From Patescibacteria group bacterium (GTDB taxonomy: Bacteria > Patescibacteriota > Patescibacteriia > UBA10025 > JAHIVO01): a stretch of DNA of 64,000 nucleotides. The stretch covers positions 2,628-66,627 of the forward strand of contig JAZDEZ010000003.1 in assembly GCA_043808365.1 (NCBI GenBank), in the 5' to 3' direction. The position numbers and the translations under genes were made by a program. Numbering within the stretch: the stretch's first letter is position 1; each line of letters starts with the position of its first letter. The notes under the pieces were generated by a model. It did no database searches. It was not told where the DNA came from and saw nothing but the letters and a program-made list of their open reading frames with translations. This document shows positions 6,307 to 9,678 of the stretch, piece by piece.

Positions 6307-7167
6307 TTACTTTATCACGATACTATTCCCGTCAGCAGTCATTATGATGTCCTGCCCAATATCAGTCCGGAATATCCAGCTTCCAACATTTTCCAAACGC
6401 TTAATAGTTGAAAGATGCGGATGCCCATACGAGTTGCCCGCACCTACGGACAGTACCGCGTACTGTGGATGCACGGCACGTAAAAACTCCAGCGACGACG
6501 AATACCGGCTGCCGTGATGTCCGACTTTTAATACGTCACTGCGGAGTTTTATATTTCGGCGATCCAGTAGTGCCTGCTCAACTTCTTCTGGCGCATCGCC
6601 GGTAAAAAGGAATGAAGTATTCTGATAAACCAGCCGGCTGACCACCGAGGTTTTGTTCAAATCCTTGACTCCGGCGACTGACTCATAACTTATCGGATAC
6701 AAAATATCCATAGTCACGTCACCGAACGCGTATGTCTTTCCGGCTGCCACAATGCGGACAGGAATATTTTTTCGTACACTCACGTCCTGCCAGGCCGCGC
6801 AGCCAGGCGATGCGTCGCCCACGCCGCTCCAGATAACCTGTCCGACATCATACCGATCAAGTACGGCGGCCAGTCCCCCGACGTGGTCGGCGTGGCAGTG
6901 GGTCAGGACAACCAGGTCGATTTGCCGGTCATAAAACGGCAAAGTCTTCCCTAATTTGGACAAGACCGCCGTATCCGGCCCGGCATCGATCAGGATGTTC
7001 TGATGTGACGGCGTACGGATAAGCGCGCTGTCGCCCTGGCCGACGTCGAAGAATATAACGCGTAAATCAGTTTCACGCTGGTTATGGAAATAAATGCCGG
7101 CCAAAACGGCTCCGGCGGCGCACGCCCCAATTAACCAAATAATCAGTTTGGCGCGTTTTGATTTCAT
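6307..7167 (-). CDS. comEC: ComEC C-terminal metallo-beta-lactamase domain protein (separate ORF)
   Basis: 286 aa. It has an N-terminal TM helix, then FFDVGQGDSALI and THCHADHVGG MBL motifs. Its start overlaps the upstream ComEC ORF by 4 nt (ATGA). Confidence 0.85.
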   Translation of the reverse strand: MKSKRAKLIIWLIGACAAGAVLAGIYFHNQRETDLRVIFFDVGQGDSALIRTPSHQNILIDAGPDTAVLSKLGKTLPFYDRQIDLVVLTHCHADHVGGLAAVLDRYDVGQVIWSGVGDASPGCAAWQDVSVRKNIPVRIVAAGKTYAFGDVTMDILYPISYESVAGVKDLNKTSVVSRLVYQNTSFLFTGDAPEEVEQALLDRRNIKLRSDVLKVGHHGSRYSSSLEFLRAVHPQYAVLSVGAGNSYGHPHLSTIKRLENVGSWIFRTDIGQDIIMTADGNSIVIK

Positions 7168-8663
7168 GCGGCTTTTTTCTGTCTGTGCTTATAAAAAATA
7201 ATACCCAGGGTCATTATGGCATACCACGCGACCAGCCAAATCCATGACATGCGGCGGAAAGCAATAGACGCAAAATCAAATCCGGAAAAAAATTCCGTGA
7301 CCGCCACGATATACCTCAGTATCAATCCGACAAACCAGCCCGCCACCGACCCCAGCGGCAGCCACGCTAATGCCAGCACCACGGCGCCGAATCCCAGCCC
7401 CATAGTCAGCGGGATAACCGGTACGATCAGCAGATTAACCAGCGGCGCTACTATGGACAAACGTCCAAACTGGTAGGCGATGAGCGGTGCCGTAAAAAAG
7501 ATGGCCGACATCGTTGCGGCCAGCGTAGTGCTCAGCCACCCGGGAACCAGCCGGTGCGAAAACCATCTTTCAAAAACCGGCGATAGATATACCAGCCCGA
7601 GCGTGGCCAAAAACGACAGCTGAAAACCGGCGTCGAACGACAGTATCCGCGGGTTTATCACCACCATGCAGGTCGCGGCAAACACCAGGACGTTGGTGAT
7701 CCTGCTTAACCGCCCAAGTTCGCGCCCCAATAGCACCAATCCTCCCATTATGCCCGCGCGCACTGCTGATGCTTGGGCGCCGGTCATGACCACGAAAATC
7801 CCGATACACAAACACGACACCCAAAAACTCATCCGCCGTGGCAGCGCCATCCGCTGAGTCAACGCGGATAAAGCCATGGCTATAATGGTAATGTTGAAAC
7901 CGGACAGGGCTACGATATGCGTGATGCCGGTGCGGTTGAAACCGGTCATGAGGTCCGGTGGCATGGCTTTTTTCGCGCCAAGCAAGATGCCTCCTAAAAG
8001 CGAAGAAAAAGGTTCAGCCGCTATCTCTTGCATCGCCAGAATAAGACGATTTTTTATATCAAAAAGACCGGCCATGATCCAGCTGCCATACCCCTCACCG
8101 CGCATCAACACCGACTGGGGCCGATAACAAACTGAATGGATTTCATATCGGGACAAATACGCTTCATAATCAAAAATCCGGCCAGAGCCGTCGTCCAGTG
8201 CGATCTGGCCGGGTGTGGCGATCTCGCAGGAAATTTCTAAAAGGTCGCCATAGTGATAGCTTGGATAGGTCGGCACGGTCACCAGAACTCGGCCGGACGC
8301 GTTTTCAGCATCCGTCCGCGACGTTTCAATGGATAATTTAACGCTGTCTTGCCGCACGTCAGGCTCGTCTGCCACCACACCTAAAAAACGAGTGGCGCTA
8401 CCGTTGTAGAAATCAATATCTTCCGGCGTCGGGGCGCGCCCGCTAAGCTGATACCGAAAAACTCCGCAGACAAACAATACTACGCAAACACAGATAATGC
8501 GGACAATCATCCGCGGCCAGAAAACAAACAGCAAGACCGCCGCCAACCCGATTATCAACGCGCATAGCCACCAGGGCCAGATACCAACCGGACCAACTCC
8601 AATACCGGCACAAATACTAAGGCATATCAGAAGGAATGTCTTTGATTTGGTAAATATCAGCAT
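7164..8663 (-). CDS. comEC: ComEC/Rec2 DNA internalisation channel, N-terminal OB-like domain plus competence TM domain
   Basis: 499 aa with multi-TM topology. The region GITHIVALSGFNI...LSFLAT is typical of the competence domain. It lacks the MBL domain, which the next ORF encodes. Confidence 0.85.
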   Translation of the reverse strand: MLIFTKSKTFLLICLSICAGIGVGPVGIWPWWLCALIIGLAAVLLFVFWPRMIVRIICVCVVLFVCGVFRYQLSGRAPTPEDIDFYNGSATRFLGVVADEPDVRQDSVKLSIETSRTDAENASGRVLVTVPTYPSYHYGDLLEISCEIATPGQIALDDGSGRIFDYEAYLSRYEIHSVCYRPQSVLMRGEGYGSWIMAGLFDIKNRLILAMQEIAAEPFSSLLGGILLGAKKAMPPDLMTGFNRTGITHIVALSGFNITIIAMALSALTQRMALPRRMSFWVSCLCIGIFVVMTGAQASAVRAGIMGGLVLLGRELGRLSRITNVLVFAATCMVVINPRILSFDAGFQLSFLATLGLVYLSPVFERWFSHRLVPGWLSTTLAATMSAIFFTAPLIAYQFGRLSIVAPLVNLLIVPVIPLTMGLGFGAVVLALAWLPLGSVAGWFVGLILRYIVAVTEFFSGFDFASIAFRRMSWIWLVAWYAIMTLGIIFYKHRQKKAA

Positions 8664-9256
8664 AATGAAGTGTTAACGAATATTTCCGAATGGTCGTCCA
8701 TAAAATAATTTCTGGCGCTGGAAAACGGGTAGTCAGTTGCCTGCATCACCAGACCGGCCCGGCGCGGATTATCATGGATGTAGGCAAGTTTCTCTAATAA
8801 CTTTTTTTCAGAATAAATGTTGAAATCGTAAAATGAAGGTTGCCAGATTTTTTCGGTCCCAGGGGTATGAACGTGACCTCGGTTAATCCATCTATAAGCT
8901 TTGGGTAGCCGCGAGCCCGCGCTCGCGGCGGAAGAGGGCGAAAGCGAGGGCTTTCGCCTACCCGTCTTCATATAATTTATAATCTCCTTGGCTGAATGCC
9001 CTTTGATTGCCTGTACAATTTTGGATATCGTCAATCCCTTATGTTCATCCGCATCCCACCAAACAATCAAATGCAGATGGTCAGGCATCAGGCAATAACC
9101 AACCACCCTGAATCCCAATTTCTGGCGGTAAAACTCGATATCCTTCAGAACAATCCCACAACATTTCTCATCTATAAAAAGTGGTTTATTCTTAAAGGTC
9201 TTGGTTGTCACAAAATGGGCCTGACCCGCTATATTGAATTTTGGCAACCTAGCCAT
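8657..9256 (-). CDS. IS200-like / REP-associated Y1 (HUH) tyrosine transposase (RAYT-like)
   Basis: 199 aa. It has the HUH motif in YCLMPDHLHLIVWW and a C-terminal LAYIHDNPRRAGLV helix carrying the candidate catalytic Tyr. It overlaps the comEC start by 7 nt. Confidence 0.8.
   Translation of the reverse strand: MARLPKFNIAGQAHFVTTKTFKNKPLFIDEKCCGIVLKDIEFYRQKLGFRVVGYCLMPDHLHLIVWWDADEHKGLTISKIVQAIKGHSAKEIINYMKTGRRKPSLSPSSAASAGSRLPKAYRWINRGHVHTPGTEKIWQPSFYDFNIYSEKKLLEKLAYIHDNPRRAGLVMQATDYPFSSARNYFMDDHSEIFVNTSLC
8903..8963. repeat. REPIN-like element: two inverted GGGTAG-hairpin units inside the transposase ORF
   Basis: The sequence is GGGTAG-CCGCGAGC-ccgc-GCTCGCGG ... GGCGAAAGC-gagg-GCTTTCGCC-TACCC. 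Each strand therefore reads 5-prime GGGTAG followed by an 8-9 bp stem with a CCNC loop. It is translated in frame as GRRKPSLSPSSAASAGSRLP. Confidence 0.6.
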
Positions 9257-9266
9257 AAAACAAAAA

Positions 9267-9289
9267 CCTTCCGCGAATTAACGGGAAGG
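9267..9289 (-). promoter_or_regulatory. Leader hairpin sequestering the SD-like GGAAGG of the transposase
   Basis: On the minus strand, CCUUCC-11 nt-GGAAGG ends 10 nt before the ATG at 9256. IS200 tnpA is known to be repressed by an RBS-occluding stem-loop. Confidence 0.4.
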
Positions 9290-9300
9290 TTGATGTTTAC

Positions 9301-9328
9301 AGCCTAGCACACTCACTCGCTATGTCAA
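9301..9328 (-). promoter_or_regulatory. Predicted promoter TTGACA-N16-TAGGCT
   Basis: Hexamers at 9323-9328 and 9301-9306 on the minus strand, upstream of the transposase. Confidence 0.35.
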
Positions 9329-9361
9329 ATGCAAAAGACTGGCCAACTGACCTCACGCATG

Positions 9362-9406
9362 TATTCGTATTATTTAAATAGTATTCGTAAAAATATAATA
9401 TTCGTA
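9362..9406 (-). promoter_or_regulatory. Three copies of the TACGAATA motif
   Basis: Exact TATTCGTA at 9362, 9382 and 9399 on the plus strand. They lie directly downstream (minus sense) of the terminator at 9409-9439. Confidence 0.45.
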
Positions 9407-9408
9407 AT

Positions 9409-9439
9409 AATAAAAGCGGAGATCACGTGTATCTCCGCC
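9409..9439 (-). terminator. Intrinsic terminator after the 74-aa ORF
   Basis: GCGGAGAT-acacgtg-ATCTCCGC followed by UUUUAUUAUU on the minus strand. Confidence 0.65.
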
Positions 9440-9453
9440 TATAAATATGGTGA

Positions 9454-9678
9454 CTACCCACCGAGGTGAGGCGAATTCTGATCCCGTGACGGCATGAAAA
9501 AATTATTGCCGTCAACCTGCCTGACGAATATACCTGGCGAAGCACTGCTCTCGATGAGAGCCAGATTTCCTGACATGGATGTTATTGTGCCCTTGGCGTT
9601 TTCGCCATCGATGCCAGCTGGGAAGTTTACCACCTTCCCTGGTGTGAAACTCGGCATTCGGGTTTTATCACCGCTCAT
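9454..9678 (-). CDS. Hypothetical small protein (74 aa)
   Basis: The ORF is bracketed by its own predicted promoter and terminator. No motif was recognised. Confidence 0.4.
   Translation of the reverse strand: MSGDKTRMPSFTPGKVVNFPAGIDGENAKGTITSMSGNLALIESSASPGIFVRQVDGNNFFMPSRDQNSPHLGG

Follow-up and report, generated by a model that had tools for sequence, protein, structure and literature searches.

A REPIN-like pair of GGGTAG-footed hairpins lies in frame within the RAYT gene of a Patescibacteria clade

A stretch of 64,000 nucleotides (nt) from contig JAZDEZ010000003.1 of a Patescibacteria group bacterium was analysed over its whole length (hereafter the window). It contains a gene for a transposase of domesticated type, a REP-associated tyrosine transposase (RAYT), REP standing for repetitive extragenic palindrome, and the coding sequence of this gene harbours two inverted hairpins with the organization of a REP doublet, or REPIN. 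The occurrence of this REPIN-like pair inside the RAYT gene, first pointed out in an initial annotation of the window, was confirmed as real and non-random. Our reading, which we hold to be probable, is that the pair is a REP doublet belonging to the clade itself, which a disordered loop of the RAYT tolerates and which is maintained in the form of single-stranded-DNA hairpins. The features concerned are listed in Table 1.

Read on the plus strand, the doublet is GGGTAG-CCGCGAGC-CCGC-GCTCGCGG-C, a 7-nt spacer, then GGCGAAAGC-GAGG-GCTTTCGCC-TACCC. The two inverted, GC-stemmed hairpins with CCNC loops that had been announced for this segment are both perfect over 9 bp, with arms at 8908-8916/8921-8929 for the second unit (hp2) and at 8937-8945/8950-8958 for the first (hp1), whose plus-strand loop GAGG is CCTC on the minus strand; GGGTAG indeed precedes each hairpin on its own strand. 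In the minimum-energy fold of the doublet, hp1 and hp2 each fold separately. The pair is read through without loss of frame, as had been stated, and is translated as TGRRKPSLSPSSAASAGSRLPK. The region between AKEIINYMK and KIWQPSFYD was rightly described as extra-long: it exceeds that of short homologues such as P0062, P0063, P0066 and P0085 by ~36-40 amino acids (aa).

Table 1. Features of the RAYT locus, in positions of the window
Feature	Position	Strand	Basis or remark
RAYT gene (HUH/Y1), intact, 199 aa	8657..9256	-	Open reading frame, NF047646, Y1_Tnp, 4ER8
HUH motif codons (H60-L61-H62)	9071..9079	-	Reverse complement of atgcagatg = CAT CTG CAT
Catalytic tyrosine codon, Y159 of AYIHDNP	8780..8782	-	gta, reverse complement TAC
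REPIN-like doublet: two inverted GGGTAG-footed REP units, 61 nt, encodes G99-P118	8903..8963	.	Sequence, repeat finder, folding
REP unit 1 (hp1): foot GGGTAG 8963-8958, stem GGCGAAAGC/GCTTTCGCC, loop CCTC; foot strand = coding	8937..8963	-	
REP unit 2 (hp2): foot GGGTAG 8903-8908, stem GCCGCGAGC/GCTCGCGGC, loop CCGC; foot strand = template	8903..8929	+	
Spacer between hp1 and hp2, 7 nt	8930..8936	.	Sequence
Type-specific cassette tail, K119-K136, KAYRWINRGHVHTPGTEK; no hairpin	8849..8902	-	Absent from short homologues
Leader hairpin around Shine-Dalgarno-like GGAAGG and start codon region, then U-tract	9249..9307	-	z = -3.6

The doublet has a GC content of 70%, against ~40% in the remaining gene. 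Its folding gives z = -4.4 as DNA and z = -4.2 as RNA, and none of 200 shuffled sequences was equally stable. The window has only nine distinct perfect hairpins when stems of 8 bp or more and loops of 3-7 nt are required; hp1 and hp2 alone among them are GC-rich, adjacent and GGGTAG-footed. GGGTAG by itself is not enriched in the window (13 seen vs 15.7 expected), so that the signal resides in the combination of foot and hairpin geometry. With no shuffle folding as well as the real sequence, a chance palindrome is hardly credible, and we place equally little belief in the two related explanations weighed below, namely an insertion acting at the protein level, in which the DNA symmetry would be incidental, and a pseudogene disrupted by a repeat. 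Two other GGGTAG occurrences were rejected as REPs: that at 8727-8732 is the antisense of conserved D-Y-P codons, and no hairpin accompanies that at 9454-9459. The only match in Rfam, a sub-threshold one to the RAGATH-1 hammerhead over 8935-8998 (24.7 vs 56.3 bits, E = 0.15), was taken as chance on a hairpin-rich stretch.

That the host gene encodes a RAYT-like Y1 transposase was borne out independently of the hairpins. The protein scores 102.4 bits with the NCBIfam equivalog NF047646 (REP_Tyr_transpos, cut-off 80), stays under the cut-off of NF033573 (transpos_IS200, 22.7 bits vs 55) and is also matched by Pfam Y1_Tnp. Its sole relative by sequence in the PDB is E. coli TnpAREP (4ER8, the enzyme bound to a REP hairpin). 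The same entry (4er8_A) comes out on top of a fold search made with an AlphaFold2 model (predicted template modelling score, pTM, 0.78), with E = 6.6e-9 and a TM score of 0.74 on the target. The residues H60-L-H62, W138-Q139 and Y159-IHD-N163-P164 are present and are conserved across 37 and 46 homologues: in both homologue alignments (A1 and A2) H62 and N163 are invariant and H60 and Y159 nearly so, while P164 shows no variation in A1 and almost none in A2. A database protein 99% identical to this RAYT (P0001, 184 aa) begins at residue 16 of the open reading frame (ORF), past the codons at 9212-9256. Since the first 15 residues of the longer ORF (MARLPKFNIAGQAHF) agree with the conserved N-terminus of the homologues, the 199-aa ORF is the better gene model. 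The window holds a single RAYT copy.

Related RAYT genes were picked by protein similarity only, and the DNA around each was then examined. In homologues at 41-70% identity, all on Patescibacteria-type metagenome contigs, the same loop is enlarged by an insertion, which short homologues (~156 aa) lack. A GGGTAG-footed hairpin pair was found in 10 of 11 such protein-anchored genes (that of the window counted), at the same loop, codon and frame (G-R...). Every REP unit fits a 27-nt module composed of GGGTA and a stem-loop-stem of 9/4/9 or 8/6/8, the G of the foot opening the stem; the spacer measures 7-12 nt in the relatives and is not conserved in sequence. The stems themselves are wholly different between types: GGCGAAAGC (hp1) and GCCGCGAGC (hp2) in type A, to which the window belongs, GGCGAGGTC and GCCCGGGTC respectively in type B, with GTCGAGGC, GACGGGGC, GGCAAGGC and more in further types. 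Both sides of a stem change together, as in hp2, where the stem is GCTGCGAGC/GCTCGCAGC in locus L081 and GACGCGAGC/GCTCGCGTC in L083. A long single-hairpin form of the whole doublet is predicted for L083 and L001.

This covariation was quantified on the 16 distinct in-gene units of the protein-anchored genes. Paired cells amount to 99.2%, seven of the eight pairs change on both sides, and compensatory cells number 44, against 12.9 ± 2.7 in shuffles (0/500 reaching this value); when the register is slid, only 29-43% of the cells are paired. A 40-unit set gave the same outcome, to be read with the reservation that it had been chosen for pairing, a bias from which the 16-unit set is free, although small. 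The homologues thus share the protein segment, yet their DNA is palindromic, with compensatory changes in the stems. Rather than a recent insertion private to this genome, the pair is clade-wide and long-maintained, and the type of cassette (doublet plus tail) differs between close relatives. The recurrence of the peptide GRRKPSLSP...SEGSRLP in many homologues might speak for an insertion acting at the protein level, but types A to D encode unrelated peptides (GRRKPSLSP, GRRGPLTSP, GRQGFYALP, GSRGVSAST) on an identical 27-nt DNA geometry, and the same DNA is encountered in non-coding spacers and in other frames of other genes. On this comparative evidence, what is constrained is the structure of the nucleic acid rather than the peptide.

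The same loop accommodates other arrangements. In L091 (10293-10383), the in-gene units stand in reverse order (hairpin-CTACCC, ~32 nt, GGGTAG-hairpin), as though what remained were a pair of half-elements or the place where two doublets had met. In L104 (347-535) and for the proteins P0023, P0024, P0018 and P0026, hairpins are supernumerary or mixed (a type A pair together with a type B hp2) or peptide repeats have been added, and L104 and L119 seem to carry frameshifts. This loop may be prone to repeated insertion or rearrangement.

Imperfect stems bear on which nucleic acid would be the functional form. In the set of all footed units with at least 6/8 Watson-Crick pairs, mismatches read on the GGGTAG strand comprise 12 G·T and a single A·C (binomial p = 0.0017, on small numbers), this A·C belonging to a doubtful unit. 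In-gene copies have four wobbles, of which three fall in hp2, the unit with a foot strand antisense to the mRNA. A folded single strand can accommodate G·T, and the opposite strand shows such a change as A·C; each unit is thus selected on its own foot strand. This asymmetry favours single-stranded DNA as the functional form, with one unit per strand, the form in which the TnpAREP of 4ER8 binds REPs.

It also bears on the possibility of an mRNA element, whose hairpins, folded in the transcript, would act on the transposase message by way of its translation, pausing or decay, with the resemblance to REPs as a secondary matter. The mRNA strand folds strongly (-41.9 kcal/mol, with the RNA z-score given above), and the leader hairpin described below, as counted for this explanation, would also limit expression of the RAYT gene. 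REPs can moreover stabilise or attenuate transcripts (Di Nocera et al. 2013, PMC3733652). However, mismatches are G·T on the foot strand, which for hp2 is antisense to the mRNA, so that in the transcript A·C would stand at three of the four wobbles seen in genes. The conserved GGGTAG foot is moreover unpaired and inverted, and it is the same in intergenic copies that look non-transcribed and lie in either orientation. A purely mRNA-level element is argued against by these features, and we regard it as quite improbable.

The effect of the insert on the gene was assessed against L087, a syntenic orthologue whose gene order (GlmS, small ORF, RAYT, ComEC) is that of the window, which suggests vertical descent of the RAYT. 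Between the two, the proportions of nonsynonymous (pN) and synonymous (pS) differences are 0.175 and 0.76 in the core (codons 1-97 and 137-199), pS being saturated, and 0.50 and 0.59 in the cassette (codons 98-136); pN and pS are reported without the ratio of corrected rates (dN/dS) because dS between these genes is saturated. Purifying selection thus acts on the core of the gene but not on the cassette. In the AlphaFold2 model, the predicted local distance difference test (pLDDT) is 92-97 for the core, below 50 for residues 101-115, 43-57 for residues 101-130 and 51-57 for the tail. The insert sits between helix 77-98 (αC) and the strand of W138 (β4), and it behaves as an unconstrained surface loop. 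Of the outcomes that the initial annotation had envisaged for the gene, tolerance of the insertion is thus upheld by the low-pLDDT loop and the selection on the core. Inactivation is not, the ORF being intact, the catalytic residues conserved and the core under purifying selection, and these observations likewise speak against a pseudogene. With synonymous sites saturated, the two perfect 9-bp stems in both orthologues cannot have survived without selection from one old insertion; they are instead maintained or renewed.

The window gene carries a type A cassette and L087 a type B cassette, and the two genes differ mainly there: nucleotide identity, 70-85% along most of the gene and leader (lower in a few 30-nt windows), drops to 25-50% across 8849-8937. 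In a protein tree built with the cassette masked (neighbour-joining without support values, indicative only), types A, B, C and D are interleaved, and several closest pairs are of unlike type. Each hairpin type is always paired with its own tail motif (Y.W.N.G.VHT for A, YP.RRMSEQ for B). Since extragenic doublets are devoid of a type-specific tail, exchange between RAYT alleles or paralogues is likelier than replacement by an extragenic doublet. These sequence patterns point to an exchange of cassette type between close relatives. The type A and B tails were compared by eye as a frameshift or inversion of one sequence, and nothing convincing emerged. Over 8640-9354, RAYT and leader (mostly 70-85% nt identity) are more alike between window and L087 than are the ComEC 5' region and the upstream small ORF (~25-65%), which could reflect stronger constraint or more recent exchange.

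Three RAYT paralogues of two types lie side by side within 2.9 kb in L081 (9594-12456). The first is an N-terminal fragment with type D hairpins, in which the hp2 foot is joined to the 17-nt leader of the next RAYT; the others are an intact type A gene and a type A copy (87% nt identity) that is full-length but interrupted by a nonsense codon, four codons past the doublet. Two short Y1 ORFs of this locus, considered as gene copies broken at the doublet, resolved on alignment into the full-length paralogue with its nonsense codon and the fused N-terminal fragment. Of the two, only the fused fragment points to recombination at a REP, and it does no more than hint at it. A single REP unit stands just upstream of the paralogues (~9594-9620).

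Such turnover invites another explanation, in which doublet and tail would be a co-opted module rather than a passenger: an autoregulatory site at which the RAYT would bind or cut the hairpins of its own gene on single-stranded DNA, a protected master copy by which element and enzyme stay linked, or a substrate/specificity-loop cassette swapped whole. It would agree with the presence of the pair at the same codon in 10 of 11 relatives despite synonymous saturation, with the constant association of hairpin type and tail motif, with the interleaving of types on the masked tree and with the near-restriction of the window-L087 difference to the cassette. The location of the αC-β4 loop is also suggestive, as it lies near the REP-recognition region of 4ER8 and is close to that region in subclasses 2.2 and 2.6, according to the survey by Quentin, Siguier, Chandler and Fichant (2018, PMC6006769). 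Against this, the cassette peptide is modelled with low confidence and evolves near-neutrally (pN/pS ~0.86), linkage of tail and hairpins is expected under plain co-inheritance, the tree is of the kind stated above, and the RAYT gene of L092 works with flanking REPs and without an internal pair. We consider a co-opted module unlikely. A bolder proposal, to which we give slightly less weight, unites doublet and tail in one exchangeable cassette that would encode the substrate and the portion of the enzyme loop beside the hairpin-binding surface. The streamlined genome would then hold a very small population of REPINs, with the in-gene copy as its protected master; if this were true, lock and key would be inherited and swapped together.

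The reading of the pair as the clade's own REP doublet calls for copies outside RAYT genes. A metagenome scan with the hp1 pattern common to types A and B returned 33 exact matches in 32 stretches, 16 of them inside RAYT genes and 17 outside. Most of the latter are full doublets (GGGTAG-hp1-spacer-hp2-CTACCC) located in AT-rich spacers, and an identical hp1 27-mer is present at 19 places across loci, inside RAYT genes and elsewhere. On the 697-kb contig Ga0172379_10000003, both stems of an in-gene copy at ~46.8 kb recur in an extragenic doublet at ~316.8 kb, which has a different spacer. In-frame doublets also occur in two non-RAYT ORFs, named by motifs only: a QueA-like ORF (L093, 335-400), where the doublet is in antisense orientation, and an ORF resembling a metallo-beta-lactamase (MBL)-fold hydrolase (L111, 1129-1235), where it is read in the frame GG GTA GGC. 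In the latter, the hp2 loop holds a further nested GC-rich insertion. REPs flank some of the RAYT genes as well. L092, which has no internal pair, has three GTAG REPs around its RAYT gene in the classical REPtron layout, and in L089 and L081 a REP unit or doublet is found just upstream of the RAYT start codon. As a control, the same scanner was applied to 78 distant RAYT loci (other phyla, among the matches listed): REPs flank many of these genes, and in this loop no in-gene pair was seen in any of them. Viral contigs scanned for relatives yielded none. The distribution of these copies shows that the clade has a dispersed, very low-copy REP-doublet family, of which the in-gene pair is a member.

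Several points weigh against this reading. No further foot-plus-hairpin unit was found anywhere else in the 64-kb window, and the 697-kb contig has only two exact hp1 copies, far under classical REPIN populations. The two units of a doublet differ in stem, unlike those of textbook REPINs; in the window, the hp1 and hp2 halves are 81% complementary over 21-nt arms (17/21, repeat finder). The use of hp1 as bait biases both the conservation of hp1 and the genic-to-extragenic ratio, which adds to the selection for pairing in the 40-unit set. Given the very low copy numbers in relatives, active dispersal may be rare or extinct.

A second, shorter GTAG-footed family (GAGTAG-AGAC-TTTA-GTCTCT and relatives) was noticed in L107 (1513-1645) and L123 (6220 and 12492); in L107, a type B doublet is nested between two inverted units of this family. 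In addition, a distant RAYT-like ORF (26% identity) contains a perfect double-foot palindrome, GTAG-AGAGACGCAA-AATT-TTGCGTCTCT-CTAC (L100, 2342-2366), which resembles the double-foot REPs of subclass 2.4.

The E. coli TnpAREP of 4ER8 and the window RAYT have in common the fold, the W-Q and Y...NP residues and substrates in which a GTAG foot lies 5' of a hairpin on single-stranded DNA. E. coli REPs number in hundreds. Unlike the window pair, they are extragenic and flank the gene, and their stems are longer and imperfect. The αC-β4 loop comprises only a few residues in the E. coli protein, as judged from the alignment, and is long in the window RAYT. Of the residues contacting GTAG (legend of Fig. 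S11 in PMC6006769, compared by eye), W and Q are kept in the window RAYT, whereas H101 and R104 are not.

An in-frame REP inside a tnpAREP gene is already published for another subclass. In PMC6006769, such REPs are reported for subclass 2.4 (RAYT group 4), and the authors read the insertion as a peripheral loop. As in the window RAYT, the REP of subclass 2.4 lies in frame between HUH and Y, and the median protein length, ~194 aa, is similar. The motifs are NH[IFV]H, WQ and YIxNNP in subclass 2.4 and DHLH, WQ and YIHDNP in the window; the consensus of our clade is DHLH and YIHxNP, a few members having NHLH or YIHNNP. The insertion site differs, β3-αC in subclass 2.4 (legend of Fig. S7) and αC-β4 here, as does the form of the REPs, 'long' or 'double foot' in the former and short 27-nt units in the latter. 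REPs flank subclass 2.4 genes within ~1 kb; there are none around the window gene, and those of L089, L081 and L092 have been described above. The hosts are Cyanobacteria, Bacteroidetes and others in one case and Patescibacteria in the other. Covariation, strand asymmetry and cassette switching are not described for subclass 2.4 in the text consulted. By these features, the window clade falls outside subclass 2.4 as defined there.

The window doublet also resembles the REPINs of Pseudomonas fluorescens SBW25 (Bertels and Rainey 2011, PMC3116915) in its two inverted REPs and short spacer. Those REPINs are associated with a single-copy RAYT and vertically inherited; here, one RAYT copy in the window and its synteny with L087 would agree with this, the three paralogues of L081 would not. 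Classical REPINs are, however, extragenic, with near-identical arms and large populations (PMC3116915), whereas here the stems are unlike, copies are very few and one of them is genic. GTAG/CGTC REPs and Rickettsia palindromic elements inside genes, often as dimers and encoding 20-30 aa, have been reviewed previously (PMC3733652), and the QueA-like and MBL-hydrolase-like cases are of this sort. Those insertions are sporadic and lineage-specific (PMC3733652); the RAYT insertion is clade-wide and at one codon. The literature searched gave no report tying REPs or RAYTs to Patescibacteria. What appears to be new is the phylum, the αC-β4 loop, the clade-wide retention with covariation, the strand asymmetry and the switching of types.

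Taken together, the following scheme can be proposed. A functional RAYT of a Patescibacteria clade would carry a copy of the clade's REP doublet in its own coding sequence and, by analogy with E. coli TnpAREP in 4ER8, would recognise each unit in its hairpin form on single-stranded DNA, one per strand. It would then cut and rejoin at the hairpins, an activity that would account for the doublets scattered in low numbers through related genomes, both between genes and within other genes. The copy in the RAYT gene would be tolerated because it falls in a disordered surface loop between αC and β4 and because the reading frame avoids the TAG of the foot. It would be kept intact as DNA, its type being exchanged between close relatives. 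We infer from the comparison with known systems that the RAYT binds, cleaves and disperses these hairpins, as we do the reasons for which the in-gene copy persists.

Upstream of the coding sequence, the leader hairpin has arms at 9249-9272/9284-9307 and a core AACCUUCC-(11 nt)-GGAAGGUU; its 3' arm is GGAAGG, 10 nt ahead of the AUG, and UUUUUGUUUU follows. It is nearly identical in L087 and is not present in the other relatives examined, which sit in other contexts. As had been suggested, this hairpin encloses the Shine-Dalgarno-like GGAAGG just upstream of the start, which recalls the IS200 leader stem-loop that sequesters the ribosome-binding site. The hairpin is kept only in L087, however, and the U-tract would equally allow it to be a terminator or attenuator, so that IS200-like translational control is no more than a possibility.

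Further upstream, three direct copies of (G/A)TATTCGTA, ~17-21 nt apart in an AT-rich segment (9361-9407) between a terminator and the leader hairpin, may form a promoter or operator region; they are not conserved in L087. The terminator in question is an intrinsic-terminator-like hairpin on the minus strand (GCGGAGAT...ATCTCCGC with a T-rich tail, 9414-9440) at the end of the upstream small gene. Because of it, the RAYT gene probably has its own promoter, or is reached by read-through past two hairpins. At the other end, the RAYT stop region overlaps the start of a ComEC-like gene (7164-8663, minus strand) by 7 nt (8657-8663), the overlap being 4 nt in L087, which suggests that the RAYT is co-transcribed or translationally coupled with a gene for a DNA-uptake channel. 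In other relatives the RAYT gene comes directly after UvrD or lies near MgsA/RarA-like and EamA genes.

RAYT and REPINs are the best-studied association of a transposase with mobile elements that persist vertically in bacteria, and they raise the question of how enzyme and element stay matched. The present clade offers a compact case of it, with tiny genomes, very low copy number and one copy of the element inside the gene of the enzyme. This in-gene copy is kept as a perfect hairpin pair past synonymous saturation, and its type may be exchanged between close relatives. Since an in-frame REP in tnpAREP had been published for another subclass, the value of the finding is comparative and experimental rather than conceptual. 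It extends REP/RAYT biology to the Patescibacteria.

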